From Candidatus Adlerbacteria bacterium (GTDB lineage: Bacteria > Patescibacteriota > Minisyncoccia > Phycocordibacterales > SBAW01), in contig CAIRHB010000015.1 in NCBI GenBank assembly GCA_903878285.1, positions 1 to 55,863 of the forward strand: 55,863 nucleotides of DNA, given 5' to 3'. Position numbers and translations under genes: made by a program. Shown here piece after piece: positions 9,167 through 33,065 of the stretch; position 1 is the stretch's first letter; every line of letters begins with the position of its first letter. The notes beneath the pieces are model-generated. The model was given only the letters and a program-made list of their open reading frames with translations, was not told the DNA's origin and ran no database searches.

Positions 9167-12100
9167 TTAGTTTGCTGGAGTGCTGGAGGCGACGTTGACG
9201 GTGCGGGTCGCGTAGCCAGTGAGCCCCGCTTGGTCGGTCGCACTATATATAATAGTATGCGTACCCGCCGCACTGGTGTCGATGTGGATCTGGTCGGGCG
9301 TCGTGGTCGCACCGCCGTCGACCGAGACCTGGTAACCAATATTCGGGCTCGCCGCGTCAACAATCGTCACGCCAAGGTCGCTGTAGGTATCGCCGACAGT
9401 GAGACTAGTTGGCGAATCCCCCACCACGGTCAACACCGGCGCAGTCGGCGAATTTGCTGCAGATGAACCGGAGTTGCCCGAGCCACTTGCCAAACCGGAA
9501 CTAGACGAACTGCTCAAACTACCGCCGCTTGCGCCAGAGCCACTACCTGCCACGCCAACGCCCGAGAGCATCTGCTGCAGCTGGTCGCCAGTGACACACA
9601 CCGAGCCGCCGCCCGACTTGGTCACACACAGCTTGTCGGTCGTGACCTGCTTGGAAGTAAACGACTCGGCGAACCCTGCCACCGTCGCCTCAAGCGCCGA
9701 CAATTCATGCGAGATCTCCTGTATCGCGCCAACAATCGGCGCAAACAATCCTTGGTAGTCGAGCGTAAAGTACCCACTGCTGGAGTTTTGATGCACCAAA
9801 TTCGGGAATATTTTCGCAACATCTTGCGCAATAAAGCCATACTGTGTCGAGGTTGATGCGCCGTTGCCGAGCATCCAGGCATTCCAGTCGAAGGACACCG
9901 CGTTGAGCTGGTCAATCGCCGACAAGCTGCTTGATGCGTTAAGGGATGTAATGTTGTCCTTGAGTCGCTGATCAGAGGCGGAGGAACAGTTGCTTACACT
10001 GCTACCATTACCGAGCGTACAACTAAACGGCCCATTGATAGTCACAACCCCCGTATTACTCACACTAAACAACGTCGTCGTCGCCGTCGCAGTCGACGAT
10101 GCAATTGCAAAGAGTGTTGTGTTGGTCTCGCCGTTGTTGGCGTGGACAGAGAGTTTTGCATACGGCGAGGTGGTGCCGATACCGACGTTGCTGCCGAAAT
10201 ATGCAGTATTGGTGGTCGTAGCGTAGTTCATATACGTGTTCCATGCTGCGCCAACTGTACCTAGCCCTCCCATTGCCGCATTTGGAATAAGTCCCACGCC
10301 AAATCGGATATACGACGACGCGTTAACGAGCACCTGTTGGCTGCTACCAGACTGTCCAATTGTTAGAGAGCTTGAGTTTGCTGGGAAGTTCATGCTAACC
10401 GCACCGGTATTACTCACACTAAACAATGTTGAGGTCGCCGCACCCGATACATAGTTAGTCGACGACGCAATTGCAAACAGCGTCGACTGCGAACCGTTTG
10501 CATTTGGTTGCGTTGCTACCGAAAGCTGGGCGAATGGTGAGGTGGTGCCGATACCAAAACTACCAGTCGAGATAAAGCGTCCCGCTTCAATGTTGTTGGG
10601 ATTAAAGACGATACTACCTCCACCCACTCCCCATGAGCCGCTAACAAGTCTTGTGGTGAGGTTAAGGTTTGACGCACTGTTGGAAATGCGGTTGAGCACT
10701 ATCCCTTGGGTCGCAAGACCTAGATAAGTAGACGAACTGTTTGACACGCGCGCGAGTGGGGTGCTTGCACTATCAACGCCAGTAACCTCGAACAAGGAGT
10801 TAGGCGCTGCCGTCCCAATCCCCACGTTGCCCGAGTTAGTGACGGCAAACAACGTCGAGGTCGCCGCACCCGATACATAGTTAGTCGACGACGCAATTGC
10901 AAACAGCGTCGACTGTGAGCCATTTGCATTTGGTTGCGTTGCTACCGAAAGCTGGGCATACGGTGTCGTGGTGCCAATACCAAAGTATCCGTTTTGACTC
11001 AGCACAGCACCAATCGTCCCGTTTCCACCCGCAGTGTTAGGTTGATAGGCAAAATACAGACCGCCCTGTCCACCAGCGCCCGTACGGTATGCACCAACAA
11101 CGCCCGTATAATTGGCAGACGTGGCACCAGACACATCAAAACCGATACCACTATAGTTGTTGTTTACACTGCTATTGTTTCGTATTATTTCAGATACGTT
11201 AGAGGGCGCTATACCTGAAAGGAAGTTGTTGTTGTTTGAAGCAACAACGAAAAGAGGACTGTACGGCGTTGCAGTTCCAATCCCAACATTCCCCCCAAAG
11301 TACGCGTTGCCCGTCGTCGTTGCCCCGCCAGAGACAGTGAGTCCACCCGTTTGGTTGCCGTCGCCGATGGTGGTGGAGGCGTACGAGGTGAGCCCACCAT
11401 TAAACGCCACAAGTGTTGAAGTCGCATTACCCGCGAGCGCGAATGGGTAGGCAAAGGTGTCGTAGTTTCCTGCGGGTTGTTTGTTGTTGAAGGTGTTCCA
11501 ATCGGTCGACGAGAGGTAGCCGTTTGCGCCCGTGCCTGCCTGCGTGATAGTAAACTGCCCTGTGGTGTTGTTGTACGACAGCGGTGCGGATGCAGACAGC
11601 GCCCCGAGCGCGATGTAGTTGCTCGGGTTGGTCGCGTTGTATGGCGTGTAGCCAAGCGCGGGCTGGAATGCGCTCGGCGCGTTACCCTGCCACGTGCCCG
11701 CCCAATCGCCAGCGTTGGTGAGTATGCCGGTGTTCGTAATCTGCCCTGTCGTGGTGTTGTAGGCGATGCCCGCTCCTGCCGAGAGCGAGGTGGTGCCAAA
11801 GGTTGCAGCGATGATGTTACCAACGCGAGTGAGGCCTGTGGAGAACGTCAGTGGTGATTCATACAGACCAGCGAGTGCTGCTTGTGCGCGTGCAGAGGTG
11901 AAATAGAGATTAGTCCCTTCAGCAAGGTTGCTCGTGCTCCGCTGCGAGAGAAAGTAGTCGGTCGACGTGGTGGCGAAGTATTTTGCATCATTCGTCCACT
12001 GCGAGATGTTGGGTGAGGCAAACTGTGTCGTAGTGAGCCCTGTCACATTGAACGTGTTGCCACTGTAGGCAAGCCCCGTGCCTGCGGTGGTAGTCGCTGC

Positions 12101-14521
12101 GGCGTAGACACCACCTACTGAGTTGACCGCGAGCGCCGCGTTGGTGAGTGAGGGGAGGATGAAGGCACTTGCAGTGACCGTGGCGAAGGCGTTGTTGCCC
12201 AAGAAGGTGTTTGTCCCAGAGAATGTGTTTGCACCTGAGAAGAGGTTGCTATCAGCAAAGAGTGTGGACGAAGCAGACGAGAGACAGGAGCCGTTGACCG
12301 CGAAGCAGCCCGAGGTGAGGTTGACGCCGTTGGCGATGGTTGTTGAGCCTGTATTGTCGACACTAAAGAGCGTTGTATTGGTGAGCGCGGTTGATGAAGC
12401 GATAGCAAAGAGCGTTGTTGCAGTGTCGCCGTTGTTTGTCTGTACTGCAAACTTCGCCCACGGCGAGGTGGTGCCGATGCCGATCGCCCCGGTCGTCGGC
12501 GCATGGAGCAAGATGTCAGTCGAGGTCGCCGGTATCGTGCCGTAGATCATATTGCCGATGTTGAGCTGATTGCTCGCCAAGGCGGATGGGAAGGCGGTGT
12601 TCCATCCGATGCCGATATTGTTGCTGCCGGTCGAGAGCGCGTTCGGTCCACCTGCGTTGTACTGGACACCAATCAGGATATTGTCAGACCCGGTGGTCAC
12701 GTTCCATCCAGCCGAGGTGCCAAGGAACGTGTTGTAGTCAGACCTGTTTGTGTTGTTGAATCCCGAATATGCACCGACCAGTGTCGAGCCTTTGTTGGCG
12801 TAGAAGCCGCGGCCAACCCCTGCCTCAAACCCGACAGCCGTGGTCGAGGCAGCGTTGGTGTTGTAGAACAGCGATGCATACCCGAGAGCCGTGTTCCCGC
12901 TACCGGCGTTGTTATAGACAAGCGAAGACGCACCGAGCGACGTGTTAAACGATCCGCTATCATTGTTGTTGAGCGCATTTGTTCCGACCGCAGTGTTCCA
13001 GATTCCGCTGCCATCCGACGCGAGCGCTTGATAGCCAAACGAGGAGTCCCCTGTGACATCAGTGCCCAGCTGATTTTGATTCCCTGCCCCGAGCCCAAAG
13101 GTTGTGTCCTCGCTGTTTGGTGACGCGAAGGCGAGTGAGGTGCCGTTGCTCGTGATTAGCCCGCTGCTTACGTCAAAGGTTGCTACTGCCAAGTTGCCGA
13201 ACGTGTTGTTGCCCGTAAAGGTATTGTTGGCATACGTCTTCGCTACGGTACTTGATGCGTCCAAGTAGGCGTTCACCCGGTCGTCGGTGTAGTACTTGTT
13301 TGTGGTGCCTTCGGCAAGCGCGTCCGTCGTGGTGGCATACCAGTCAGCGAGCGCGAGTTTTGTATTGAGCGCCTGCTGTAAATCTGTTTGGTTAGCAATC
13401 GAACCGGTCATGTTTCCCCATGGCACCGCGAGCGTTGTCGAGCCAGCACCGATCACACAAATACCGTTGAGGCTAAAACATCCCGAAAGCAGGTCGATGC
13501 TGCCACCAAACGTTGAGGTCGTTGTCGCAGTGTCATTGAGTGCGCTCGTGAGTGGTCCCGTGAGCGCACCACCCGATAACGGCAGATAGTCATCCGCCAC
13601 GACCGGCTGAATAGTTTGTGTGATGTTGGTCACAGCACCGCCCATCGCGACGTACCCGGTCGGGGTGGTAATGCCCGGCAGGTGCGATTGTATCGACGCA
13701 GACAACTGCTCGAGTTTCGTGTCCAACTCTGCTTCGGTGACCCCGGTGCTCGTGCCGACAACCGTCTTGAGTATCGTCCGCTCGACAACTGGGTAGGTGT
13801 TGTGTTGGATAATTTGCGGCTGCGACTGAGCAAGCGTGATACTCGGTACTGATGCACTTCGTGTAGCTGTGTTCGATATTGTTGGAGTAGTCGAGGAGTT
13901 TGTTTGAGCTGTTTTTTTTACATTGAGCGCATACTGCGAACCAGTGCCGACAAAGAGTGTCGATGCGATGTGTGCCACGGTCGAGACCACTGCGTCTTCA
14001 AGCGATGCAAGCACTGGCAATACGCTCGCTGTTTGCACACCAAACAGCGGCGAGTCAGCGGTGCCCACAGCCGAACCAAATGTTGTCGATCGCACTGAGA
14101 GCGATACCGCCGCGGTTGCCGCAGCACATACCAACGCGCCCGACACCAACGCAACACCAAACGCCACCACCGTGTGTTGTGGCACACGGTACTTCGAGAC
14201 AAACTCCGATGCGTGTATCCGTGCGCGCTCAATCGTCGGCGCGTTTTGTTTTTTATACTCGATGCCTTCGCGGCGACGCTGCTCGGAGAGCTCCTCTGCT
14301 CGCTGCTGTTTTGCAAATACGCGACTCGCCTCAAACCGTGTGACCGAGCGTTCGTCGACAAACCATGCGTTCCGCACACGGACACCCTTGAGCTTACCTT
14401 CGCGACATAATCTGCCGACATAGTCGGGAGCACAGTCGAGACGTTTCGCAACTTTGCGCGCGGAGAGCATCATCTCGCCGGATGGAGAAAGAATTTTGTT
14501 ATCGTGCTCGTGTGCGCTCAT
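9167..14521 (-). CDS. 1784-aa membrane-anchored fibre/adhesin: N-terminal excisionase-like HTH, TM, tail-fibre-like repeats, peptidase S74 chaperone, C-terminal Ig-like (DUF5011-type) domain
   Basis: LSARKVAKRLDCAPDYVGRLCREGKL..VRNAWFV (HTH); hydrophobic stretch aa ~117-140; NTAVG/NTSLG/NTALG repeats; GNVGIGT repeats; SDQRLKDNI...YGFIAQDV (S74); PVLTVVGD...TYSDLG...YSATD (Ig-like). Confidence 0.88.
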   Translation of the reverse strand: MSAHEHDNKILSPSGEMMLSARKVAKRLDCAPDYVGRLCREGKLKGVRVRNAWFVDERSVTRFEASRVFAKQQRAEELSEQRRREGIEYKKQNAPTIERARIHASEFVSKYRVPQHTVVAFGVALVSGALVCAAATAAVSLSVRSTTFGSAVGTADSPLFGVQTASVLPVLASLEDAVVSTVAHIASTLFVGTGSQYALNVKKTAQTNSSTTPTISNTATRSASVPSITLAQSQPQIIQHNTYPVVERTILKTVVGTSTGVTEAELDTKLEQLSASIQSHLPGITTPTGYVAMGGAVTNITQTIQPVVADDYLPLSGGALTGPLTSALNDTATTTSTFGGSIDLLSGCFSLNGICVIGAGSTTLAVPWGNMTGSIANQTDLQQALNTKLALADWYATTTDALAEGTTNKYYTDDRVNAYLDASSTVAKTYANNTFTGNNTFGNLAVATFDVSSGLITSNGTSLAFASPNSEDTTFGLGAGNQNQLGTDVTGDSSFGYQALASDGSGIWNTAVGTNALNNNDSGSFNTSLGASSLVYNNAGSGNTALGYASLFYNTNAASTTAVGFEAGVGRGFYANKGSTLVGAYSGFNNTNRSDYNTFLGTSAGWNVTTGSDNILIGVQYNAGGPNALSTGSNNIGIGWNTAFPSALASNQLNIGNMIYGTIPATSTDILLHAPTTGAIGIGTTSPWAKFAVQTNNGDTATTLFAIASSTALTNTTLFSVDNTGSTTIANGVNLTSGCFAVNGSCLSSASSTLFADSNLFSGANTFSGTNTFLGNNAFATVTASAFILPSLTNAALAVNSVGGVYAAATTTAGTGLAYSGNTFNVTGLTTTQFASPNISQWTNDAKYFATTSTDYFLSQRSTSNLAEGTNLYFTSARAQAALAGLYESPLTFSTGLTRVGNIIAATFGTTSLSAGAGIAYNTTTGQITNTGILTNAGDWAGTWQGNAPSAFQPALGYTPYNATNPSNYIALGALSASAPLSYNNTTGQFTITQAGTGANGYLSSTDWNTFNNKQPAGNYDTFAYPFALAGNATSTLVAFNGGLTSYASTTIGDGNQTGGLTVSGGATTTGNAYFGGNVGIGTATPYSPLFVVASNNNNFLSGIAPSNVSEIIRNNSSVNNNYSGIGFDVSGATSANYTGVVGAYRTGAGGQGGLYFAYQPNTAGGNGTIGAVLSQNGYFGIGTTTPYAQLSVATQPNANGSQSTLFAIASSTNYVSGAATSTLFAVTNSGNVGIGTAAPNSLFEVTGVDSASTPLARVSNSSSTYLGLATQGIVLNRISNSASNLNLTTRLVSGSWGVGGGSIVFNPNNIEAGRFISTGSFGIGTTSPFAQLSVATQPNANGSQSTLFAIASSTNYVSGAATSTLFSVSNTGAVSMNFPANSSSLTIGQSGSSQQVLVNASSYIRFGVGLIPNAAMGGLGTVGAAWNTYMNYATTTNTAYFGSNVGIGTTSPYAKLSVHANNGETNTTLFAIASSTATATTTLFSVSNTGVVTINGPFSCTLGNGSSVSNCSSASDQRLKDNITSLNASSSLSAIDQLNAVSFDWNAWMLGNGASTSTQYGFIAQDVAKIFPNLVHQNSSSGYFTLDYQGLFAPIVGAIQEISHELSALEATVAGFAESFTSKQVTTDKLCVTKSGGGSVCVTGDQLQQMLSGVGVAGSGSGASGGSLSSSSSSGLASGSGNSGSSAANSPTAPVLTVVGDSPTSLTVGDTYSDLGVTIVDAASPNIGYQVSVDGGATTTPDQIHIDTSAAGTHTIIYSATDQAGLTGYATRTVNVASSTPAN
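10421..10984 (-). repeat. Two ~138-bp near-identical intragenic direct repeats (10421-10558, 10847-10984)
   Basis: Both encode GIGTT.P.AQLSVATQPNANGSQSTLFAIASSTNYVSGAATSTLF; shorter related copies near 10050-10185 and 12350-12485. Confidence 0.9.
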
Positions 14522-15065: not shown

Positions 15066-15722
15066 CTAGAAGTGAAGCCGGATGTTCTTGTCGAAAGAAT
15101 ACGTTGTAATAGAAGGAGATCCTATGCCTGCTGTTATCTGCGCACTGATTTGCAGTGATGCGACGAGTGCCAGTGCGCACACAATGCACGCAGCCACAAT
15201 ATTGAGTACCATTGGGAGTACAGTGCGACTTGGAGCCGATGTCTGCCATGCGCCAACCTCGTCTGTCTCGATAGACTCTGCGGGCAGCGTGGGATGCGGT
15301 CTTGGTATGCTCGGAGTCTCTACTATCCGAGAAGTTGTTATTTTTCTTCGTACCTCGGGATACAGAGGCGCATCGTCTGGCACATAGGTAAGTCCACGCT
15401 TACTGGTAAGCGGTAGCGGATGTGACGTAACAGTGGGGATCTTTGTGAGCGTTACTGTATGTTCTTGCATTGCCGCAGGAGCCGGATGTGGAGGCTCCGG
15501 TGGTACAGGAGTAGCAACAGAAATAGGTTCCTGTGTAGGAAGCTCTTTCCCAAAGTATCCAGCAAGTGACTCTACTTCGACATACCACGCCCGACCAACC
15601 TTAGTGCCGGTGACTTTTCCTCCACGAATCAGCTGTCCGATGTAGTCGCTGTGATAATTGTTCTCTTTCGCGGCACGCCGCGCCGAGATGTATCGCTTGC
15701 CCGATATATCTAGCTCATCCAT
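15066..15722 (-). CDS. Excisionase-like HTH protein with Pro-rich linker and C-terminal TM
   Basis: YISARRAAKENNYHSDYIGQLIRGGKV..TKVGRAWYV; TM VLPMVLNIVAACIVCALALVASL; TGcTATACT 6 nt before the ATG. Confidence 0.82.
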   Translation of the reverse strand: MDELDISGKRYISARRAAKENNYHSDYIGQLIRGGKVTGTKVGRAWYVEVESLAGYFGKELPTQEPISVATPVPPEPPHPAPAAMQEHTVTLTKIPTVTSHPLPLTSKRGLTYVPDDAPLYPEVRRKITTSRIVETPSIPRPHPTLPAESIETDEVGAWQTSAPSRTVLPMVLNIVAACIVCALALVASLQISAQITAGIGSPSITTYSFDKNIRLHF

Positions 15723-18176: not shown

Positions 18177-18512
18177 TTAGAGAACAGCGCTCACTACCCA
18201 TGATACAAGCGCAAGGACGACCGAGCCCTCAAGTGCGGGGACAAACCCAGCGACCGCGAAGCCTTTGACAAACGTTGCAAGGAGCCAAAACAGCAGCGCA
18301 TTGAGCACGAAGGAAAATAGCCCGAGTGTCAAAAGGTTTATCGGCAAGGTGAGAACCTTCAACACTGGCTTAAGCGTCACGCCGATAATCCCCCACAGGA
18401 GCGCGACCACAATTGCTGCGTACCAGCCAGAGACGACGATACCCGAAACGATGTGCGGCAAGAGAAGCAGCGTGCCAGCGATGACGAAAATGTGGAGTAG
18501 TATGCTAATCAT
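18177..18512 (-). CDS. 4TM phage-holin-like membrane protein (YvlD/DUF360 type)
   Basis: KPVLKVLTLPINLLTLGLFSFVLNA signature. Confidence 0.85.
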   Translation of the reverse strand: MISILLHIFVIAGTLLLLPHIVSGIVVSGWYAAIVVALLWGIIGVTLKPVLKVLTLPINLLTLGLFSFVLNALLFWLLATFVKGFAVAGFVPALEGSVVLALVSWVVSAVL

Positions 18513-18561
18513 AAAGAAACGAGAGCGGGACACGAGTGCCGTGTGCCTATATCGTACCACA

Positions 18562-19338
18562 CTAGAGGTAGTTGAGCAATCGACCGTAGCCGAGCCAGCC
18601 AAAGAGCTGGTAGCCGAGCTCGGCAAACTCCCCCATCCCGCCAAGGAGCATCACGACGCCGAGCACCACCAGACATACGCCGCCAATAGTCGAGAACACC
18701 TGCAACCGATTACTCCAACGAGCAACGACCTCGCCAGCCTCGCGCAGCAGCATCGCTATGACGAGAAACGGTATGCCGAGACCGAGTGAAAACACAGCAA
18801 GCAAGAGCGCACCTCGCAGAGCAGTCGCCGAGGTGCCCGCGAAGAGAAGTATCGTGCCGAGAATTGGCCCCACACAAGGACTCCACCCGAGCGCGAAGAG
18901 TATGCCGATGAGCAGCGAGCTCTCGGGGCGCCCGATGGTCAGGAAGTGTGGGATATGGAACCGTCGCTCAACAGACACCAAAGGGATTGTCACGACACCG
19001 AGCATCGTGAGCCCAAAGAGTATGATGATCGCCCCAGCAGCGCGAGCGAGCGCATACCGCCACGACCCAACGAGTGCGCCTAGAATGCCAGCACCCATGC
19101 CGAGTAGTATAAAAATAATCGAGAAGCCGAGCACAAACGCGAGCGCGTTCCACAGCACGCGACGGCGAGCCGTCTTGCCGAGATATGTCTCGCCTCGCCC
19201 AGATGTGCCCGCGGCAGGCACGCCCGCGATAAACGCCAAGTAGCCGGGCACGATGGGTAGTGTGCATGGCGCCAAAAACATCAACAGCCCGGCACAGAAC
19301 GCCGCTGGCAGTAGTGTGAACAGATCAGTAGAACTCAT
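18562..19338 (-). CDS. ccdA: Cytochrome c biogenesis/thiol-disulfide transporter CcdA
   Basis: FLAPCTLPIVPGY and WSPCVGPILG Cys motifs. Confidence 0.9.
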   Translation of the reverse strand: MSSTDLFTLLPAAFCAGLLMFLAPCTLPIVPGYLAFIAGVPAAGTSGRGETYLGKTARRRVLWNALAFVLGFSIIFILLGMGAGILGALVGSWRYALARAAGAIIILFGLTMLGVVTIPLVSVERRFHIPHFLTIGRPESSLLIGILFALGWSPCVGPILGTILLFAGTSATALRGALLLAVFSLGLGIPFLVIAMLLREAGEVVARWSNRLQVFSTIGGVCLVVLGVVMLLGGMGEFAELGYQLFGWLGYGRLLNYL

Positions 19339-19718
19339 GCACCAACAATAGCATGTACCGTCTCTGCTATCTCGCCCGGGGTCACGCGCACTTTCTCCAT
19401 CATCTGCACCGCACCGAGCTCTTTACCAAGCGCGATATTCTCCTCCGTTGCGTCGTTTGAAAACAAAAGCACAGGAATCGTCGCTGTGTACGCATCCTTC
19501 TTTAACTGACGCAGGATGGTGAACCCATCCATGTCCGGCATGCGGATATCGAGCAGAATCATGTCTATGTGAGAATTCCTCGATAGCAGACCGAGCGCCA
19601 CCGCGCCACTTGGTGCGTACACACACTCAATACTATCGCGACGCAGGCGCTGCCCCACCACGTCAGAAAACAGGCTGTCATCGTCAATCATCAGTACCGT
19701 AAGCTGTTTTTCTGTCAT
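19335..19718 (-). CDS. Stand-alone response regulator receiver
   Basis: IDDD, LLDIRMPDMDG, conserved K; no output domain. Confidence 0.92.
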   Translation of the reverse strand: MTEKQLTVLMIDDDSLFSDVVGQRLRRDSIECVYAPSGAVALGLLSRNSHIDMILLDIRMPDMDGFTILRQLKKDAYTATIPVLLFSNDATEENIALGKELGAVQMMEKVRVTPGEIAETVHAIVGA

Positions 19719-19769
19719 ATATCGTTATGGTTAGTACCTCTCTATGGTCGCACGACCAAACCCCGCTGT

Positions 19770-21425
19770 CTAGCTTTCTGTCCCCACTCCGGCAATCGCC
19801 GCGTCTCCCACCCTCTGCAGATCAACTGTGAAGGTTGAGCCCTTCCCGGGTGTCGAGCTGACACGGATGGTGCCGTGATGCGCCCCGACAATCGACTTTG
19901 CGATGTACAACCCGTAGCCGGTTGAATGCGCGTTGATAGCGAGCGAGTCTTTGCCGCGCCCACCTTCGGTAAAGAGCTTCTTGTTGTCCTCGGGGGTGAT
20001 GCCAACTCCAGTGTCCGACACCGCAAACCGCGCCACCCCACCCTGCATCGTAATCGCCACACTGACGCTGCCTGCGGGCGTGTACTTGACAGCATTATCA
20101 ACCAAGTTGTAGAGCACGTGCTTGGCCATCTGCACCTTGTCGCCCATAACGATGCACTCGCCTACCCGAGGCGCCGCGAACGAGTACATAAGACGCTTCT
20201 CCTTCGCCGCAGGCTCAAACTCGGCGTACACCTCATGCGCCACCTTGACGAGGTCGAACGGCCGCATCGAATAGCTCACGACACCCTTCTTAAAGTTCGC
20301 TGCGCCGAGGATGTCGCTCACCATGTCGACCCCTTGCTGCATCTCGTCGCGCTCGCGCGTCGCGAGACTCTTGAGCGCGTCCGACACATGCCCGTAGCTC
20401 TCGTCGGCAATCGCGGCGAACCCAACTTGGCTTTTGGTAAAGTATCCCTTCACCTCGTGCGTAATAAAGTGTATCAAGTTCTCCTGATTCTGATTGGCGA
20501 GTTCGAGATTTGCATTAGTTTGTTCGAGTTCCTTTTTTTGCCTCTCGATAAGCTCTCGCTGCTGCTCCTCTTTGATAATACTTCGCACCAGAAAGAACCC
20601 TCCAATGATCGAAAGAGTGAGGATGCTTGCATTAACCACACGATCAGACGGTGTCGAAAATACCGTACGAAATAGGAGCACCGCTAGTAACGCAAATGTT
20701 GCTAGCTCGGCTGAAATTGCCTTAAAGTTAAATAGGTGATGACGCATCACTGCATATCCAATAACCAGCACATACAACATGACAAATATGTTTGCGTATG
20801 GGGGTATCGGGATGCCATACCACAGAAAATAGTTCGTCGAACCACTCACCGACGCAATCACCATCGCGATAAATACAAAGATGATCTGGCGACGTAATAC
20901 TATGTCAGAAGAGTTTCGATACCCAACCACCAGCAGGTAAGTAACGAAACAATTGCAAATAAGCCACATTAGCAAATAGTATGCATACAAAGGTCCTGCT
21001 TTGGGCCAAAACGGAAAAAAGAGGATATTCTTCACGCCATCTATAAACAATGGGGAGAGGGTTGGAGTAAGATCGAAAAACACAAAGACAAGCGATAGCG
21101 CATAAAATAAAAAGAGAAACGATCTTTTGCGGTGTTGTGTACCAATGAGAGAGAAGACAAAATGTAAGTATGTTGGAGCTGTAAAAATAGCACCCACCAT
21201 AAGCAACCGAGCCCAGAGCAACGCGTCCACGGCATCAGTGCTTAGTTGCCAAAGGGCGTACCCGACACTCCACACAGCAACTGCAGATGCAAAGTAGAAA
21301 AAAGATCTGTTTAAAGAAGCGCGCGGATTTTGTATCAAAATAAACAACCCGATACCCATACTTGCCGCGCAATTGATCGCGGCGGAGAGCGCATAGAAGT
21401 CTGTTGAGAAGAAGAAGGTGTTCAT
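19770..21425 (-). CDS. Sensor histidine kinase with N-terminal 7TM (HisKA_7TM-like) domain
   Basis: About 8 hydrophobic segments, H-box THEVK, N-box NLVDNAVKYT, DTGVG, G.GLYI, GKGSTF. Confidence 0.9.
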   Translation of the reverse strand: MNTFFFSTDFYALSAAINCAASMGIGLFILIQNPRASLNRSFFYFASAVAVWSVGYALWQLSTDAVDALLWARLLMVGAIFTAPTYLHFVFSLIGTQHRKRSFLFLFYALSLVFVFFDLTPTLSPLFIDGVKNILFFPFWPKAGPLYAYYLLMWLICNCFVTYLLVVGYRNSSDIVLRRQIIFVFIAMVIASVSGSTNYFLWYGIPIPPYANIFVMLYVLVIGYAVMRHHLFNFKAISAELATFALLAVLLFRTVFSTPSDRVVNASILTLSIIGGFFLVRSIIKEEQQRELIERQKKELEQTNANLELANQNQENLIHFITHEVKGYFTKSQVGFAAIADESYGHVSDALKSLATRERDEMQQGVDMVSDILGAANFKKGVVSYSMRPFDLVKVAHEVYAEFEPAAKEKRLMYSFAAPRVGECIVMGDKVQMAKHVLYNLVDNAVKYTPAGSVSVAITMQGGVARFAVSDTGVGITPEDNKKLFTEGGRGKDSLAINAHSTGYGLYIAKSIVGAHHGTIRVSSTPGKGSTFTVDLQRVGDAAIAGVGTES

Positions 21426-21509
21426 ACTAAACAAGACGGACGCATGACACGATATCTCTATCGTACCATGCGCCCAAAGCGAGTCCACCGTACCTTCCGC
21501 GAAAGAGCT

Positions 21510-22574
21510 CTATTTTTGTGCAGTCACCACGACAAACCCGCGGTTTGGGTCGATCGACTCTCGGAGTACAAGAAACCCCGCACCAGTGACGATGCCCTTA
21601 AACTCCGACACCGTTCGATAGTGCATCGGCATCCAACGAAAGACGTTTTCGATGAACAACCTCTGCAACCAAGAAAGCCAGCGGGGGCTCCTTAAGACAT
21701 TTCCAGTGAGCAGGAAAGAACCCGGCGGCAACGCATCATAAACCGCCGACAAGAATCTGCTAACCTGCTCGTTGGATGGGTAGTCAGGCCAGCCGATGAC
21801 CTCAACAACTACCCTCACCCCACCAGGCAGTCTTCTGACAACCGCAAGGATTGCCTCCTGGACAAGACGCGGCTCCCTTAGATCGAGTCCGTGCATCAGC
21901 TCTACGTCAGAGCGTATGCCGAGATCATTGATCATACTCTTAGCAAGTTCGAGAGGGCGTCTGTACAGATCAGTCAGAAAGACACCTGCACATACAAGAC
22001 CAGACCACCGCTCACCATCCCGCACTCCCCTAAGAAGAGGTCCTGCGGGTCCTGCAGCAAGAGCAATAAAGGCAACGGATTTGTTGCCATTACTGCTGCA
22101 ATCGTGCATGATTCTGGTCACTTCTTGACGTACGCGAGCGGCTCGATTTTGGACAGATGCAATCATGGGAAGAGTGTTCGCCACAAACCACTCAAACCAA
22201 GACAGCGAAGTGCGGATCTCTGCCGACCGAAGTCGGTAGAAAAGTTCCAGCACTTGACCACTAGCAGGGTCATCCTGGACTTGCCTAACCACGTCCGACA
22301 CTCGCCCAATTTTGGGCGGTTTGAAACGATACTTCCTTGACGCAGCTCGCACTCTCTGAGTATAACTTCTTGTGTCCCGTCTGTTTTTTGGACTCCAAGT
22401 GGTATGCTGGACGCCATAGACAAATCGAGCCACAAACGCCCAGATACCGAATATTACATAGACGGGCGCTGATAGTACCCAAACAAACCAAGGCACGGCA
22501 CGAATTTCTACATTGCTCGTTACGGGATCAACAGACCCCGCTTGGGAGCACCGAAGTGCTATCTGTTGATCCAT
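21510..22574 (-). CDS. Class I SAM-dependent methyltransferase-like protein (PhcB/Methyltransf_20-like)
   Basis: SVQNR, ALAAGPAG (motif I variant), TDL, IGWPDY, VYDALPPGSFLLTGN, W.PMHYRT..EF..IV.GAGF; strong AAGGGGG SD. Confidence 0.7.
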   Translation of the reverse strand: MDQQIALRCSQAGSVDPVTSNVEIRAVPWFVWVLSAPVYVIFGIWAFVARFVYGVQHTTWSPKNRRDTRSYTQRVRAASRKYRFKPPKIGRVSDVVRQVQDDPASGQVLELFYRLRSAEIRTSLSWFEWFVANTLPMIASVQNRAARVRQEVTRIMHDCSSNGNKSVAFIALAAGPAGPLLRGVRDGERWSGLVCAGVFLTDLYRRPLELAKSMINDLGIRSDVELMHGLDLREPRLVQEAILAVVRRLPGGVRVVVEVIGWPDYPSNEQVSRFLSAVYDALPPGSFLLTGNVLRSPRWLSWLQRLFIENVFRWMPMHYRTVSEFKGIVTGAGFLVLRESIDPNRGFVVVTAQK

Positions 22575-22648
22575 TAGATCCCCCTTATTTGTTAGATCAG
22601 TCTAACTCGCACAATAACAGAGAAAAGTAAAAAAAGAAAGGGTAGATT

Positions 22649-25198
22649 TTAACGCTGATGCTCTGGCGCGTTGATGAGGCCGCAATTTTTCCACTTTTTG
22701 CCCGAGCCGCAGGGGCACGGGTCGTTGCGCCCGATTGCCGATAGGTCGGGGGCGATGGCGGCGCCTGCCGAGGACGCAGCGAGTGTGATGGTGTTTGACG
22801 GCTGCTCTTTGACCTCGCTCGCGACGGCAGCATCTGCCGCCTGCTTGGTCATTGAGCTGAGGAGTTCGAAGACACGCGCAGCGAGCATCTGCTCCATCTC
22901 CTTATAGATATGCGTGCCCTCGCGGCGATACTCGGTGAGCGGGTCGCGCTGGCCATAGGCACGCAGATTGACCGAGCCGCGCAAGTACTCCATCGACTCG
23001 AGGTGCTCGACCCAGAGCATGTCGAGCACCTGCAGCACCACGGTGCGCGCGGCGGAGAGAAACTCCTCGCGACCAAACTCGGTTTCTTTTTGTAGCAGGA
23101 GTTGCTGGGCAGCAGACGGCTCATCGGTTGATGTCTCGTGCGGTGATACCACGCCAGGCACTGCAGGAGTGTGCGACGAAACAATCGTCGCGAGCTCGGC
23201 GAGCACATCTGCCACATCATCCACCGAGCCAACGAGCGCCTTGCGACGGCGCTCGTACACCGCGCGGCGCTGGCGATCGAGGATATTGTCAAACTCGAGC
23301 ACGTGCTTGCGTGCGTCGAAATTGAACCCTTCGATTTTTGTCTGCGCGCTCTCGAGCGCGCGAGTGACCAGCGAGTTTTGGATCGGCTCATCCTCGGGGA
23401 TGCCGAAGCGCCCCATCAATCCGCGGATGGAGTCCGGAGCAAAGACGCGCATCAGCGTGTCCTCGAGCGAGACAAAAAATTGTGTCTCGCCCGGGTCGCC
23501 CTGTCTACCCGAGCGACCGCGCAGCTGGTTGTCGATGCGGCGCGCCTCGTGTCGCTCGGTACCAAGCACAAAGAGCCCGCCGAGAGCGCGCACCTCGTCT
23601 GCCTCTACCTGTGTCGCGACGGCACCGCCAAGCTTAATGTCGACGCCGCGCCCCGCCATATTGGTCGCGACGGTCACCTTCCCTCGCTTGCCCGCGTCGG
23701 CGACAATCTCGCCCTCGCGCTCGTGGTTCTTTGCATTCAAAATCTCATGCGGCACGCCCTCGCGCTTTAAATATGCCGACAGAAGCTCGTTCTTTTCGAT
23801 CGACACCGTACCCACCAACACAGGCTGCCCTTTGGCATGCAGCTCCTTTACCCTCCGCGCGAGCGCGGCAAACTTCCCCGCCTCGGTCTGGAAGATCCAA
23901 TCAGGATGATCGAGACGCACCACGTCGCGGTTAGTCGGGATCTCGACCACCTCAAGCCCGTATACCTTGTAAAACTCCTCGGACGAGGTCTTGGCAGTAC
24001 CGGTCATGCCTGCGAGCCGCTCGTACAAGCGAAAATAATTTTGATAGGTAATCGAGGCATAGGTGCGCGACTCCTTTTGCACCGCGACTCCTTCCTTCGC
24101 CTCGACCGCCTGGTGCAGCCCCTCGCTCCAACGACGCCCCGGCTGCATGCGGCCAGTAAACTCGTCGACGATAATCACCTCGCCATTTTTAACGACATAC
24201 TCTTTGTCGCGTCGAAAGAGCGCCTGCGCGCGCACCGCGGTCTCGAGGTGGTGCACCTGCTTAATGCCCTTTTCGGTATAGATATTGTCAACGCCGAGGA
24301 TTTTTTCGGCATGTTCGATACCCGCGTCAGTCATCTGGATTGCTTTTTGCTTTTCGTCCACCGTGTAGTCGACGTCAACGTGCATCTGTGCCGCGAGCGC
24401 GGCAAACTGGCGATAGAGATCCTCAGACTCTGCCGCGGGTGCAGAGATAATCAGTGGCGTGCGCGCCTCGTCGATCAGAATAGAGTCGATCTCGTCCACC
24501 ACGGCGAAGTAATGCCCGCGCTGACGCAAGTCGCTCGCACGGTAGGAGATATTATCGCGCAAGTAGTCAAAGCCGAACTCGCTGTTGGTGCCGTAGGTGA
24601 TGTCAGCCTCGTACGCCTGCGCGCGCGTACACGGGCGCAAAAACTCGTGGAAGATGCGGAAGCTCCCCTCCTCGTCGCGGATGGCGTCGTTCTCGTTGTG
24701 TGTCTGGTCGTATAGATAGGACTGGTCGTGGTTGATAACGCCGACAGACATCCCAAGCGCGGCGTACACCTGCCCCATCCACACCGCGTCGCGGCGCGCG
24801 AGGTAGTCGTTGACGGTCACCACGTGCACGCCCTTTGCCATGAGCGCATTCAAATAAGCAGGGAGCGTCGCAACGAGTGTCTTGCCCTCGCCAGTCTTCA
24901 TTTCTGCGATGCCGCGATTATGGAGCACGATGCCGCCGATAAGCTGCACATCAAAGGGGCGCAGCTTGACGGTGCGGCGCGCGCTCTCGCGAACCGCAGC
25001 AAACGCCTCGGGCAGCAAGCTGTCGAGCACCTCGCCAGCCGCAAGTCGCGTGCGGAACTCCTGCGTCTTGCCGCGCAACGTCTCGTCCGAAAGCGCTTGA
25101 TACTCAGGCTCAAACGCGTTAATCGCGGCAACGGTTGCAGCACTCTTTTTAACCAGCGCCGCACCCGAGTCGCCAAACCATTTCGTCAGTGAAAACAT
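22649..25198 (-). CDS. secA: Preprotein translocase SecA
   Basis: MKTGEGKT, DEIDSILIDEARTPLIIS, QLRGRSGRQGDPG, GRNDPCPCGSGKK. Confidence 0.98.
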   Translation of the reverse strand: MFSLTKWFGDSGAALVKKSAATVAAINAFEPEYQALSDETLRGKTQEFRTRLAAGEVLDSLLPEAFAAVRESARRTVKLRPFDVQLIGGIVLHNRGIAEMKTGEGKTLVATLPAYLNALMAKGVHVVTVNDYLARRDAVWMGQVYAALGMSVGVINHDQSYLYDQTHNENDAIRDEEGSFRIFHEFLRPCTRAQAYEADITYGTNSEFGFDYLRDNISYRASDLRQRGHYFAVVDEIDSILIDEARTPLIISAPAAESEDLYRQFAALAAQMHVDVDYTVDEKQKAIQMTDAGIEHAEKILGVDNIYTEKGIKQVHHLETAVRAQALFRRDKEYVVKNGEVIIVDEFTGRMQPGRRWSEGLHQAVEAKEGVAVQKESRTYASITYQNYFRLYERLAGMTGTAKTSSEEFYKVYGLEVVEIPTNRDVVRLDHPDWIFQTEAGKFAALARRVKELHAKGQPVLVGTVSIEKNELLSAYLKREGVPHEILNAKNHEREGEIVADAGKRGKVTVATNMAGRGVDIKLGGAVATQVEADEVRALGGLFVLGTERHEARRIDNQLRGRSGRQGDPGETQFFVSLEDTLMRVFAPDSIRGLMGRFGIPEDEPIQNSLVTRALESAQTKIEGFNFDARKHVLEFDNILDRQRRAVYERRRKALVGSVDDVADVLAELATIVSSHTPAVPGVVSPHETSTDEPSAAQQLLLQKETEFGREEFLSAARTVVLQVLDMLWVEHLESMEYLRGSVNLRAYGQRDPLTEYRREGTHIYKEMEQMLAARVFELLSSMTKQAADAAVASEVKEQPSNTITLAASSAGAAIAPDLSAIGRNDPCPCGSGKKWKNCGLINAPEHQR

Positions 25199-25240: not shown

Positions 25241-26596
25241 CTACCGCCCGTTGGCGAAGACTTTTTGGGCGATTGTGTCAAAATCGTAGGATAGTGGGAA
25301 GTGTTGCTCGAACAAATGCATCGCTGGATCAGTGGCATATTCCCCACGCTCCGAGGCAAGATGCATCGCAAGGATCATCTCCTCGGGCTCGCCGACGCAG
25401 TCGAGCGGCTTGAACCCCTCGATACCGAGAATCTGTCGGATGAGCGGCAGCAGATGCTTTTTCGCATACAGGTCAGCACCAAACATCTCGACCACTTCTT
25501 TTTTCGGCAGAAACGCCGCGAAGCAGGCAAACAAGAATACGCATTTTGGGCACTCTCGACACCAGTATGCCCGGCGGCGCAGATGCTGCTCGATGCGCGG
25601 GAGCCAAAAATAAGCGTTGCAGCTCGTGACATGGCGGAGATACTGCGGATAGCCGACAAAGCGCCGTACAATCTCGAGCTCGCTGTACTCGCGCAAGAGC
25701 GACCGCGTCGAGATGTCGGGCGTGATAGAGCACTGAATGTACTCGTTAATCATCTTCTCCGCCTCTGACGATTTGCACCATTGGTGATTGACCTCTAACC
25801 CGAGGTAGGTGAGATTGCCGAAATCGGCGCTGCGCTCGTTGGAGAAAATAATTTCGTTGTAGCCAAGCAACTCTGCGAGTAACGTTGCCACAAACGTAAA
25901 CGTCGAGACCGACGGATATGCACCCGAAATACCACGCACCACCATCCGCACACCGATACGCGGATCGCGACGACGAGTGACCCTGATCGTCTTTGCACCA
26001 ACCAGTGCCGCGATGCGCTCGTGCGCGGGCGTTGGCGCGAATGCAAAAAAGTCGAACAGCGTACCCGCTGCTTTCAGTAGCTCGGCAGAAAGGACAGAGT
26101 CCTTGCCTGCACCATTTAAGAGAAGCGCTCGCCCCCGCTTGCCCGCTGCACGCTCGAACCCATGCGGCTGCGCCCCCGCGCGTACAAGTCGAGCAGGCGT
26201 GGGCGCAACACGAGACGCATCGTAGGGAAAAGCGATCAGGTCGCGGAAATCCATCTGCATGTGGTAGAAAAACTCCCCAAGCCCATGCAGGTACATCTCG
26301 TCCCAAAAGTGCGCCTGCTCCCGCGTGAGTGTAAAGCCTTCGATGCGGATGTTGTGTGTCGGGAAAACGCACCAGTAGTTGATGCCGAGCATCAGTAGCA
26401 GCGCTTGGAGCGTCGGCTCGAGCACCGCCTTGGGCACCTGCTCCCACAACTCTGGCGATATGCCCTCAAAAAAGAGCTGGTCGGTATAGCTCTTTGTTCT
26501 CCCACTCTTGAATCCTACATGATACGTACAAGATACGATTGAACGAGCAGCATCGACTGCGTATGTACCAAACGTAAACGACGATGCTCGCGACAT
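25241..26596 (-). CDS. murL: MurL-like UDP-MurNAc-L-Ala-L-Glu epimerase (PP-loop)
   Basis: GAGKDS, SNERSA, NHQWCKS, SCN, WCRECPKC.F, KPLDCVG motifs. Confidence 0.72.
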   Translation of the reverse strand: MSRASSFTFGTYAVDAARSIVSCTYHVGFKSGRTKSYTDQLFFEGISPELWEQVPKAVLEPTLQALLLMLGINYWCVFPTHNIRIEGFTLTREQAHFWDEMYLHGLGEFFYHMQMDFRDLIAFPYDASRVAPTPARLVRAGAQPHGFERAAGKRGRALLLNGAGKDSVLSAELLKAAGTLFDFFAFAPTPAHERIAALVGAKTIRVTRRRDPRIGVRMVVRGISGAYPSVSTFTFVATLLAELLGYNEIIFSNERSADFGNLTYLGLEVNHQWCKSSEAEKMINEYIQCSITPDISTRSLLREYSELEIVRRFVGYPQYLRHVTSCNAYFWLPRIEQHLRRRAYWCRECPKCVFLFACFAAFLPKKEVVEMFGADLYAKKHLLPLIRQILGIEGFKPLDCVGEPEEMILAMHLASERGEYATDPAMHLFEQHFPLSYDFDTIAQKVFANGR

Positions 26597-31787: not shown

Positions 31788-33065
31788 ATGCATTCCCTTC
31801 GGCGAGCATTCTCGCGCGCGATTCGCTGGAGCGAGCAGTACATCAAGACTGACATGCGGTATGTCGCCTCGGGTGTATGGCTGTCGTTTGTCGGGCAAAC
31901 AGCGGTCTCGTTGTCGGGCCTCGCACTGTCGCTGGTACTCAGCCGGTATCTAACGCAGAACGCATACGGCGATTATAAATATATCCTTTCGCTCGTGGGG
32001 CTCCTATCGACCATCACGCTTACAGGGTTGGGCACAGCAGTGTTCCAATCAACTGCACGCGGCTACGACGGTGCCCTGCGCGAAGGATTTTGGCTAAACC
32101 TCCGCTGGAGCGTGCTCGCAATGCTCGGGGCAGCAGTGCTTGCAATCTATTATTTTATCATCGGCAACAACATGCTCGGGATTGGTGTGCTCATTGGCGG
32201 CGCATGTTCGCCACTGCTTGTAAGTGCAAACCTATTCACCTCGTTTCTCTCTGGCAAAAAGGCATTTGGGAAGCAGACGCTCTACGTTGCCATTATTGGC
32301 ACACCAATCACCGCAGCAGTACTCGCACTCACCGCACTCTGCTTTCCTAACCCAATCGCGATGGTCGTCGCCTACTTTGCCTCCAACACACTCCTGTGTC
32401 TCGCGTTTTACTATCGCACCCGCGCACTCTACCGTCCAGACGACACCAAGACCGACCCCGAGATGCGCACCTACAGCAAGCACTTGAGCGCGATGGGCAT
32501 ACTCGGCGGCATTGCAGGGAATATTGATCAAGTATTGCTCTTTCACTATGTCGGCGCACCAGCACTCGCGGTGTACAACTTTGCCACTGGCATACTTGAT
32601 CAAACAAAAGGACCGTTAAAGATGCTCGACTCCATGACACAGGCGCGTTTTGCCAATCGCACCACATCCGACATCGCCTCCAATATGCGAACCAAAATGC
32701 TGTGGCTATTCTTCTCTAGCCTCACGGCTGCTCTGTGCTACATCATTGCTGCGCCATACATATATGAGATTCTCTTTCCAAACTATCTCGCTGCTATTCC
32801 CTACTCACGACTGTACGCGCTGTCACTACTCAGCCTTGCCGCTGCTCCTGCCAGCTCCTACTTGATCGCGAAGAAACGAGTTTCGGAGCAGTACATCACC
32901 ACGCTGGTGGGTTCGGCCATACAGATTCTCTGCATGGCTATCGGCGTTATTTGGTGGGGATTATGGGGGCTCATCATCGCGCGTATCGCCATCCGGTTAC
33001 TTGGAGGATACACCACCTATGCGCTCTATGTGATTTCCGCGAAGCACCACGTGGGTGTAGATTAA
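31788..33065 (+). CDS. Oligosaccharide flippase (Wzx-like)
   Basis: Multi-pass MOP-type membrane protein, SRYL...YGDY, ID..LL. Confidence 0.85.
   Translation: MHSLRRAFSRAIRWSEQYIKTDMRYVASGVWLSFVGQTAVSLSGLALSLVLSRYLTQNAYGDYKYILSLVGLLSTITLTGLGTAVFQSTARGYDGALREGFWLNLRWSVLAMLGAAVLAIYYFIIGNNMLGIGVLIGGACSPLLVSANLFTSFLSGKKAFGKQTLYVAIIGTPITAAVLALTALCFPNPIAMVVAYFASNTLLCLAFYYRTRALYRPDDTKTDPEMRTYSKHLSAMGILGGIAGNIDQVLLFHYVGAPALAVYNFATGILDQTKGPLKMLDSMTQARFANRTTSDIASNMRTKMLWLFFSSLTAALCYIIAAPYIYEILFPNYLAAIPYSRLYALSLLSLAAAPASSYLIAKKRVSEQYITTLVGSAIQILCMAIGVIWWGLWGLIIARIAIRLLGGYTTYALYVISAKHHVGVD

Follow-up and report, generated by a model that had tools for sequence, protein, structure and literature searches.

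What kind of system lies between secA and ccdA in Candidatus Adlerbacteria, and is it inherited as a single piece? We analyzed a 55,863-nucleotide stretch of the genome of this bacterium (contig CAIRHB010000015.1; the whole stretch is the window, to which all coordinates refer), in which a putative S-adenosylmethionine (SAM) methyltransferase (MTase), a seven-transmembrane (7TM) histidine kinase, and a bare receiver are encoded between these two genes. The genome comprises 930 kb on 44 contigs and is 97.6% complete. A sequence-only reading of the window had proposed that the three co-oriented genes form a quorum-sensing cassette akin to the Phc system of Ralstonia, with an MTase and a sensor half that are replaceable and a kinase core that is conserved. 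The three genes are confirmed to lie in the same orientation, all on the minus strand, and the ccdA start and the receiver stop overlap by 4 nt. Our comparisons indicate that the MTase gene and the sensor half of the kinase gene have been exchanged jointly, as a single block, next to a kinase core that is conserved. The features concerned are the following.

22649..25198, minus strand: secA (849-aa open reading frame [ORF]), the conserved left flank of the cassette
20559..22653, minus strand: replaceable cassette, delimited by DNA comparison with the genome G007 and made up of the MTase gene, an intergenic hairpin, and the 7TM sensor half
21510..22574, minus strand: MTase ORF of 354 aa, a predicted PhcB-related class I SAM methyltransferase
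19770..21425 (ATG start, MNTFFF...) or 19770..21488 (GTG start), minus strand: histidine kinase gene
20589..21425, minus strand: sensor half of the kinase, HisKA_7TM, residues 1 to 279 counted from MNTFFF, with 7 to 8 hydrophobic segments
19770..20588, minus strand: kinase core, the resident part, a dimerization region with the H-box HEVKGYF followed by HATPase_c
19335..19718, minus strand: stand-alone receiver of 127 aa, Response_reg only, without an output domain
18562..19338, minus strand: ccdA (DsbD_TM), the conserved right flank

The exchange is visible in a comparison with G007, a genome of the same genus in which the order of the genes matches that of the window: secA, a variable block, the kinase core, the receiver, ccdA, a holin-like gene, and obg (locus L189). 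Protein identity between the two genomes is 86.5% for secA, 73.8% for the receiver, 74.8% for ccdA, 85.4% for the holin-like protein, 77.5% for obg, and 43.8% for the kinase; the secA genes are 79 to 84% identical at the DNA level. DNA homology ends at 22654, where secA ends, and resumes at 20558, the sensor/kinase junction, at the end of the last membrane helix. With these two limits, 20559-22653 is a replaceable cassette. In G007, the gap is occupied by another block, of 2.5 kb (L189 4094-6635), in which the place of the MTase is taken by a divergent FabH/KAS-III-like gene (PF08545, 24.9 bits; L189 4597-5628) on the strand opposite to the kinase. The sensor encoded in this block also has a 7TM domain, is unrelated to that of the window (21% identical), and forms a long branch within a clade of sensors that are linked to MTases.

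The two halves of the window kinase have different relatives. While only 21% identical to its G007 counterpart, the sensor half is 27 to 37% identical to MTase-linked sensors (up to 42% in the sensor-tree comparison) and falls inside their clade on the sensor tree. The kinase core, on the other hand, is 64 to 67% identical to that of G007 versus 26 to 31% identical to the cores of MTase-linked kinases, and the kinase tree places the window and G007 as sisters (support, 100).

Base composition changes along the same block. The GC content drops to 0.41 to 0.47 over 20400-21450. When GC was measured at four-fold synonymous third codon positions (GC3), the MTase and the sensor half of the kinase each had a value of 0.49 versus 0.74 for the kinase half, 0.62 for the receiver, 0.76 for secA, and 0.55 to 0.74 for 13 other genes of the window. 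The codon bias of membrane proteins was considered as a cause of the shift and was ruled out by this measure, since the membrane protein CcdA has a GC3 of 0.71. G007 has a similar profile, with a GC3 of 0.40 in the sensor versus 0.75 in the kinase half. The sequence-only reading had noted that the MTase and the sensor half look richer in AT than the catalytic half, had put the AT-rich tract at about 20480-22574, near the block of 20559-22653 that we measured, and had called for a GC3 scan of the kinase; the shift is real, and codons for transmembrane segments do not account for it. Breakpoints, GC3, and mosaic identities all bear out its claim that the MTase and the sensor half are replaceable on a conserved core.

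The exchange takes place inside an element that is itself rare in the genus. Of 36 same-genus genomes, 35 gave no match to the MTase, and the single match, in the remaining genome, has an E value of 0.0085 and five stop codons. No kinase or receiver was found near ccdA in 28 other same-genus loci (L223-L250); in the 17 loci that show both secA and ccdA, the two genes are separated by about 40 to 1400 nt without a kinase or receiver. We observed the kinase-receiver island (19339-22648) at this junction only in the present genome and in G007. Because the other same-genus loci contain no kinase or receiver there, we conclude that the two-component block is an island at the secA-ccdA junction, which looks like an insertion hot spot, and that the sensor cassette adds a further level of variation within this island. 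A pond-metagenome run (X7) yielded a 5884-nt contig of a relative that links 20354 to 22677 and, measured from its start up to 22866, exceeds the window by ~480 nt. The same run has small contigs that match the MTase gene of the window exactly, so both cassette variants appear to be present in one sample, as contigs only and in runs that may include the source of this DNA.

Of 400 other genomes of the order, 90 have relatives of the kinase half (31 to 51% identical). These kinases have an H-box of the H-x-x-K-G type in common, and their sensor halves and upstream genes vary widely (29 loci; L160-L189). The neighbors at the 29 loci include a Methyltransf_20-like MTase, SET-domain proteins (6 of 29 loci), a BioF/Kbl-family enzyme with an amidohydrolase or an ADC-like protein (3 of 29), a FeeM/LuxI-like acyltransferase together with a Methyltransf_11 MTase (2 of 29), HAD hydrolases (2 of 29), a nitroreductase-like protein, an arginase, an Orn/Lys/Arg decarboxylase, ThiF, and a PrmA-like (PRMT-like) MTase. 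The FeeM/LuxI-like and BioF/Kbl-type neighbors belong to known signal-synthase families; the BioF/Kbl-family enzymes also matched the model for alpha-hydroxyketone autoinducer synthase, below its cut-off.

Trees were inferred from 68 of 89 kinases, after 21 with lengths outside 480 to 620 aa had been dropped. Clusters on the kinase tree correspond to taxonomic family codes and those on the sensor tree to neighbor types. Label changes were counted for 27 kinases of the same core clade and compared with 300 shuffles. The type of neighboring enzyme changes 12 times on the sensor tree, the minimum (0/300 shuffles as low), and 18 times on the kinase tree (50/300 as low). Conversely, taxonomic family changes 13 times on the kinase tree, again the minimum (0/300), and 19 times on the sensor tree (15/300). 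These shuffle counts overstate independence, since some neighbor labels were taken from the gene at position -2 or from a reading of the sequence by eye, and related genomes have the same labels. The pairwise identities separate in the same manner. Kinases of the same family with different neighbors (n = 18) are on average 23% identical in the sensor and 61% in the kinase domain, and those of different families with the same neighbor (n = 29) are 31 and 49% identical; the corresponding values are 52 and 72% for the same family and the same neighbor (n = 2) and 18 and 49% for different families and different neighbors (n = 302). Thus, in the comparison of domain trees that the sequence-only reading had called for, across the order sensor domains follow the neighboring enzyme and kinase cores follow taxonomy.

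Linkage of the MTase to 7TM kinases is recurrent. With a profile built from 12 members, we found 80 MTase loci. A 7TM-sensor kinase lies immediately downstream on the same strand in 65 of them, and in two further loci the ORFs of the MTase and the 7TM kinase overlap by 63 to 70 nt as called; two loci have the 7TM kinase at a distance of 1.7 to 2.8 kb, and two leave no room for it. In total, 67 of the 78 MTase loci with room are linked, and the related loci are almost all from genomes labeled Patescibacteria or candidate phyla radiation (CPR). All four weak MTase matches in other families of the order likewise have a 7TM kinase directly downstream, in the same gene order. Such linkage across the group is what the sequence-only reading had predicted.

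The Proteobacteria-labeled homologs that have no adjacent 7TM kinase (L037, L038, L040, L055, L058, L060, L062, and L065) are ~330 aa long and have starts resembling MHHYKIHT... or MKLSNGVN.... In L038, L058, and L065, a small upstream gene on the opposite strand resembles an XRE-type helix-turn-helix regulator by eye.

What does the MTase do? Against the Pfam family Methyltransf_20 (PF12147), it scores 17.7 bits (E, 0.0021), below the gathering cut-off of 21 bits, while three of the four relatives in other families of the order score 43.9, 25.3, and 42.1 bits, all above it. Therefore, the family overlaps PF12147, and the window member is too divergent to pass. In NCBIfam, no model matches the window MTase or the PhcB-like protein, and a literature search for Methyltransf_20 or PF12147 by name returned nothing. 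Among 1.84 billion representative proteins, 69 relatives were found at an E value of ≤0.001, the closest of which (P0002-P0006) are 35 to 39% identical; a word-indexed search among 5.8 billion proteins recovered none but the MTase itself. Eight residues that are invariant in an alignment of 34 family members are all kept in the window MTase: Y113, R144, G175, D202, G261, Y265, W314, and M317. G175 belongs to motif I, and D202 is the acidic residue after strand 2. The AlphaFold model (pLDDT, 87.4; pTM, 0.87) has a long N-terminal helix, a helical cap, and a Rossmann-type core in which strands and helices alternate from residue 167; residues 24 to 42 form a hydrophobic 19-mer. The best structural match is 3ocj (TM-score, 0.57/0.66), followed by natural-product O- and C-methyltransferases, EgtD, and NNMT, and Foldseek listed at least 500 matches to methyltransferases at an E value of ≤0.001. 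Sequence matches in the PDB are to generic small-molecule methyltransferases, to 3ocj (E, 5.4e-6; profile positions 89 to 292), and to a cyclopropane-fatty-acid synthase (7qos; E, 1.7e-5). By its modeled fold, motif I glycine, and acidic residue, the protein is predicted to be a class I SAM-dependent methyltransferase that binds SAM. An RNA, DNA, or glycan methyltransferase was considered and rejected, as no such enzyme is among the top matches in the sequence or structure comparison; 3ocj and small-molecule methyltransferases head the lists, so a better match to an RNA or glycan enzyme, which would have undone the original proposal, did not emerge.

An MTase that travels with a sensor could act on the kinase itself, methylating the sensor in a CheR-like adaptation or serving as a membrane-bound accessory subunit, and this would explain why the gene moves with the sensor half. 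Core-clade kinases do adjoin SET-domain and PrmA/PRMT-like proteins, which are protein-methylation families, the N-terminal hydrophobic helix would place the MTase at the membrane beside the kinase, and there are weak CheR signals (PDB 5ftw, E of 0.0044; PF01739, E of 0.0024 in one relative). Against this, the best neighbors of the MTase are 3ocj and small-molecule methyltransferases rather than CheR or SET proteins, its homolog PhcB makes a small molecule, most cassette enzymes at the sister loci are not methyltransferases, and the hydrophobic anchor is absent from most members of the family. We consider such an action on the kinase quite improbable. A predicted complex of the sensor half and the MTase scored 0.00, which is evidence in neither direction.

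The relationship to PhcB was approached through 301 Burkholderiales genomes, on which the PF12147 model was run. In 27 of them, it matched the C-terminal halves of ~590-aa fusion proteins (E, about 1e-150; L101-L129) and reported no PhcB-like ORF at an E value of ≤1e-5. The profile of the CPR MTase family matched a second class of Burkholderiales proteins, of 462 to 473 aa, at E values of 1e-19 to 1e-25; directly downstream of these is a ~440-aa membrane kinase with an invariant H230. Published PhcB proteins are 464 to 468 aa long (PMC8578825), and PhcS is autophosphorylated at H230 (PMC11960443). Because length, downstream 440-aa kinase, and H230 agree with these descriptions, we infer that the loci are phcB-phcS-like and that the 462- to 473-aa ORFs are PhcB-like. 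An hhalign comparison of the CPR MTase family alignment with five PhcB-like proteins gave a probability of 99.1% (E, 5e-19; 227 columns; 15% identity) over positions 233 to 470 only of the PhcB-like profile, and the aligned region includes family motifs outside the SAM-binding core. Motifs common to both groups are an NR element, the invariant Gly of motif I, the acidic residue ending strand 2, G-x-x-D-Y, T/G-N, and W...Y-R. The profile alignment argues that the MTase family is a true but distant homolog of PhcB-like enzymes. The earlier proposal that the MTase is PhcB-like therefore stands for the catalytic domain; nothing in the window protein corresponds to the N-terminal ~230 residues of PhcB, in place of which it has the hydrophobic helix and the helical cap.

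The ~590-aa fusions touch on another explanation, in which the MTase would methylate a membrane lipid of the envelope and the 7TM kinase would monitor the resulting property of the membrane. By eye, the N-terminal halves of these fusions resemble alpha/beta-hydrolases, and their neighbors are a CDP-alcohol-phosphatidyltransferase-like gene and a membrane protein, a lipid-related cluster that looks distinct from phcB. This lipid-metabolism context of the canonical PF12147 proteins, the match to 7qos, and the membrane anchor of the MTase would all suit an envelope function. Yet PhcB-like enzymes are nearer to the profile of the CPR MTase family, which matched them at 1e-19 to 1e-25, than to the PF12147 model, which missed them at an E value of ≤1e-5, and the cassette is exchangeable and absent from nearly all same-genus genomes, unlike core envelope functions. 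We therefore regard an envelope-lipid role as very improbable. The kinship with PF12147 itself has two sides: 3ocj, a "possible exported protein" of Bordetella parapertussis, is the best structural match, and relatives of the MTase pass the cut-off of the family, whereas the canonical Burkholderiales members are fusions without an adjacent kinase and the window protein stays below the threshold.

The resemblance to Phc ends at the sensor. The kinase matches HisKA_7TM (PF16927) with 62.8 bits versus a cut-off of 28.6, and HATPase_c with 86.8 bits; with this N-terminal 7TM domain and its kinase core, it belongs to the HisKA_7TM sensor kinases and is the sole PF16927 match of the genome. A scan of the sensor half counted eight hydrophobic segments. 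PhcS-like proteins have no Pfam match to HisKA_7TM, and an hhalign comparison of 15 CPR sensors with six PhcS-like proteins gave a probability of 0.1%, so the suggestion that the 7TM sensor is PhcS-like did not survive. Bernard et al. (2020; mSystems, PMC7567580) likewise described CPR homologs of PhcS whose sensor is unrelated to that of PhcS. Other differences from phcBSRQ are the H-box HEVKGYF of the kinase core, which Pfam HisKA does not detect, and the absence of a PhcA-type LysR regulator (no PF03466 match at an E value of ≤0.001 in this genome). What the window has in common with phcBSRQ is the homologous MTase domain and the order of enzyme, membrane kinase, and receiver without a DNA-binding domain, the last as in PhcQ (PMC8578825); the receiver of the window matches Response_reg only, with 67.7 bits. 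Because it fails in sensor homology, in the N-terminal region of PhcB, and in the PhcA-type regulator, the locus is not a member of the Phc systems; the sequence comparisons point to a variant that is Phc-like in layout and enzyme ancestry.

Bernard et al. (PMC7567580) also predicted signal synthases and sensors in CPR genomes in silico; their main text contains no mention of PhcB or methyltransferase, and no description of the MTase-HisKA_7TM pairing or of the exchange of cassettes was noted in it. Titles and abstracts of the literature on CPR quorum sensing and histidine kinases do not describe the pairing either, and none of the HisKA_7TM papers that we found concerns CPR.

Products of phcBSRQ-type systems are methyl esters of 3-hydroxy fatty acids, which are released and sensed. 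The conclusion that stands most firmly is that the enzyme and the 7TM sensor are one functional unit, the simplest version of which is that both handle a common small hydrophobic compound. That the MTase makes a methylated lipophilic product that the adjacent sensor detects, as a PhcB-type reading would have it, we regard as an evenly balanced proposition. In this scheme, 20559-22653 would be a mobile cassette of an enzyme and its matching sensor set into a resident two-component system. The membrane-anchored, PhcB-related MTase would methylate a small hydrophobic metabolite, by analogy with PhcB at the carboxyl of a fatty-acid-like compound. As neither a ketoacyl synthase nor an acyl carrier protein was found in this nearly complete genome, in agreement with the earlier remark that CPR bacteria generally lack fatty acid synthesis, a compound of that sort would be scavenged. 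The HisKA_7TM domain would bind the product, or the substrate, within the membrane, and binding would set the activity of the kinase core, which would phosphorylate the stand-alone receiver. A ligand common to enzyme and sensor, its identity, its release as a cell-to-cell or host-related signal, and the target of the receiver are presumptive parts of this scheme.

The other cassettes of the order suggest a variant without a released signal, in which the kinase senses an outside or membrane compound, such as a host lipid, a toxin, or a nutrient, and the adjacent enzyme modifies, detoxifies, or consumes it. Sister cassettes do contain conversion or detoxification enzymes (nitroreductase-like, HAD, amidohydrolase, arginase, and Orn/Lys/Arg decarboxylase), a lipid substrate would have to be external in the absence of a fatty acid synthase or acyl carrier protein, and in a genome with at most three HATPase_c proteins and four receivers each sensor probably reports something basic. 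This explanation does not sit well with the kinship of the MTase to a known signal synthase, with the signal-synthase families in other cassettes, or with the position of the MTase gene upstream of the kinase in the same direction of transcription, like the synthases in phcBSRQ; moreover, the receiver has no DNA-binding output, and nothing points to the enzyme gene as the regulated target. We consider private sensing of this kind unlikely.

A released or detected MTase product, carried with its sensor as a unit, has several observations against it, in addition to the limit on the shuffle counts given above. Many neighbors of the core-clade kinases (nitroreductase-like, HAD, arginase, decarboxylase, and SET/PrmA-like) are atypical as signal synthases and fit a ligand common to enzyme and sensor better than quorum sensing specifically. 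Nine of the 80 MTase loci, labeled Proteobacteria or Dehalococcoidales, have no adjacent 7TM kinase. Across 41 MTase-linked pairs, MTase identity tracks the kinase domain (Spearman rho, 0.50) more closely than the sensor (0.17), and sensor-clade labels change three times on the MTase tree and four times on the kinase tree. Because MTase identity follows the kinase domain and the two sensor clades separate about equally well on both trees, we conclude that in most pairs the entire operon evolves together. A graft onto a foreign kinase core is shown by two loci, that of the window and L164 (G639), and its position alone suggests G678 as a third. The agr-style co-variation of synthase and sensor that the sequence-only reading expected thus holds as an exchange of modules and fails at the fine scale. 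An adjacent receiver occurs in only 6 of the 51 MTase-linked loci that have room for one and, within the kinase clade of the window, in 1 of 26 loci, and hence the receiver is not part of the conserved unit; the Phc-like cassette of enzyme, kinase, and receiver persists as a gene order but not as a fixed set, a further difference from phcBSRQ. An N-terminal hydrophobic segment is present in 14 of 34 and 29 of 80 family members. Finally, the window MTase is very divergent, ≤24% identical to MTases with a known context, on a branch of 2.5 to 2.8 changes per column. Its nearest subfamily (P0002-P0006) was not found in two metagenome scans, so its genomic context is not visible, and has no member in 400 genomes of the order, where the best matches are 24 to 27% identical.

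The arrangement resembles the agr (agrBDC) and comQXP pherotype cassettes, which encode peptide signals and vary among strains of one species. In those systems, the gene for signal production varies as a block with the sensor part of the receptor kinase, next to a conserved kinase core and regulator; the breakpoint in the window likewise falls at the sensor/kinase junction. Unlike in agr and comQXP, the enzyme of the window is, to judge from its homologs, a small-molecule MTase and not part of a peptide system, the variants come from different species of one genus (see the secA divergence above), and the alternative cassette of G007 has another enzyme family, with its FabH-like gene on the opposite strand.

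Two features of the cassette concern its expression.

22580..22586, minus strand: Shine-Dalgarno-like AAGGGGG, 5 nt upstream of the MTase ATG
21437..21476, minus strand: apparently perfect hairpin of 17 bp in the MTase-kinase spacer, followed by TCTTGTTT

AAGGGGG is the sole match of at least 5/6 to AGGAGG at such a spacing among the 26 window genes checked; a second gene with a 5/6 match has a spacing of 13 nt. This agrees with the earlier observation of a strong Shine-Dalgarno sequence before the MTase versus leaderless core genes. Many genes of the window have a box resembling TATACT, TATGAT, or TAGTAT 5 to 12 nt before the start codon, without a Shine-Dalgarno sequence; they include secA, the murL-like gene described below, the minus-strand ORFs ending at 15722, 31059, 41075, and 8328, and the plus-strand ORF starting at 31788. 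Such boxes fit widespread leaderless or short-leader transcripts in this genome. The scan that found the hairpin counts 18 pairs and gives the spacer as 85 nt from the MTase stop to the kinase ATG; folded as 96 nt, the spacer has a predicted energy of -34.9 kcal/mol (z, -3.40), and 0/200 shuffles are equally stable. The hairpin may be an attenuator or a processing site between the enzyme and sensor genes. Neither promoter-like sites (3 versus 2.9 in shuffles) nor terminator-like sites (6 versus 4.9) are in excess in 18400-23000.

Around the locus, a Phage_holin_4_2 membrane protein (87.3 bits; 18177-18644, minus strand) directly follows ccdA, and this synteny is kept genus-wide; its listed TTG start, which makes it overlap ccdA by ~80 nt, probably lies too far upstream. 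A 451-aa ORF upstream of secA (25241-26596, minus strand) has no Pfam match and reaches 227.9 bits (E, 1.6e-67) against the NCBIfam model for MurL, the UDP-MurNAc-L-Ala-L-Glu epimerase, whose cut-off is 700 bits; by this similarity, it may encode a divergent MurL-like cell wall enzyme in a CPR genome. By far the largest ORF of the window encodes 1784 aa (9167-14521, minus strand).

CPR or Patescibacteria have tiny genomes, depend on hosts, and encode very few signaling proteins. The conserved pair of PhcB-related enzyme and 7TM sensor, which moves as a unit between clean breakpoints, offers a concrete candidate for a ligand and its receptor and suggests a rule for the ligands of orphan HisKA_7TM sensors, namely to inspect the enzyme that is encoded beside the sensor. 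The conserved junction, near kinase residue 290, also suggests a cut point for chimeric sensor kinases. As a tentative possibility, CPR bacteria of this order may inherit a kinase core vertically and acquire diverse enzyme and 7TM-sensor cassettes, grafted by recombination at the junction, with enzymes that range from PhcB-like MTases, FeeM/LuxI-like acyltransferases with an MTase, and BioF/Kbl-type enzymes to SET-domain and nitroreductase-like proteins. Each cassette would then define a "dialect" of small molecules, produced from metabolites scavenged from hosts, through which neighbors or hosts are reported, and related species in the same pond sample would use different dialects at the same locus. 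If the ligands derive from scavenged lipids, the system could report the presence of a host.

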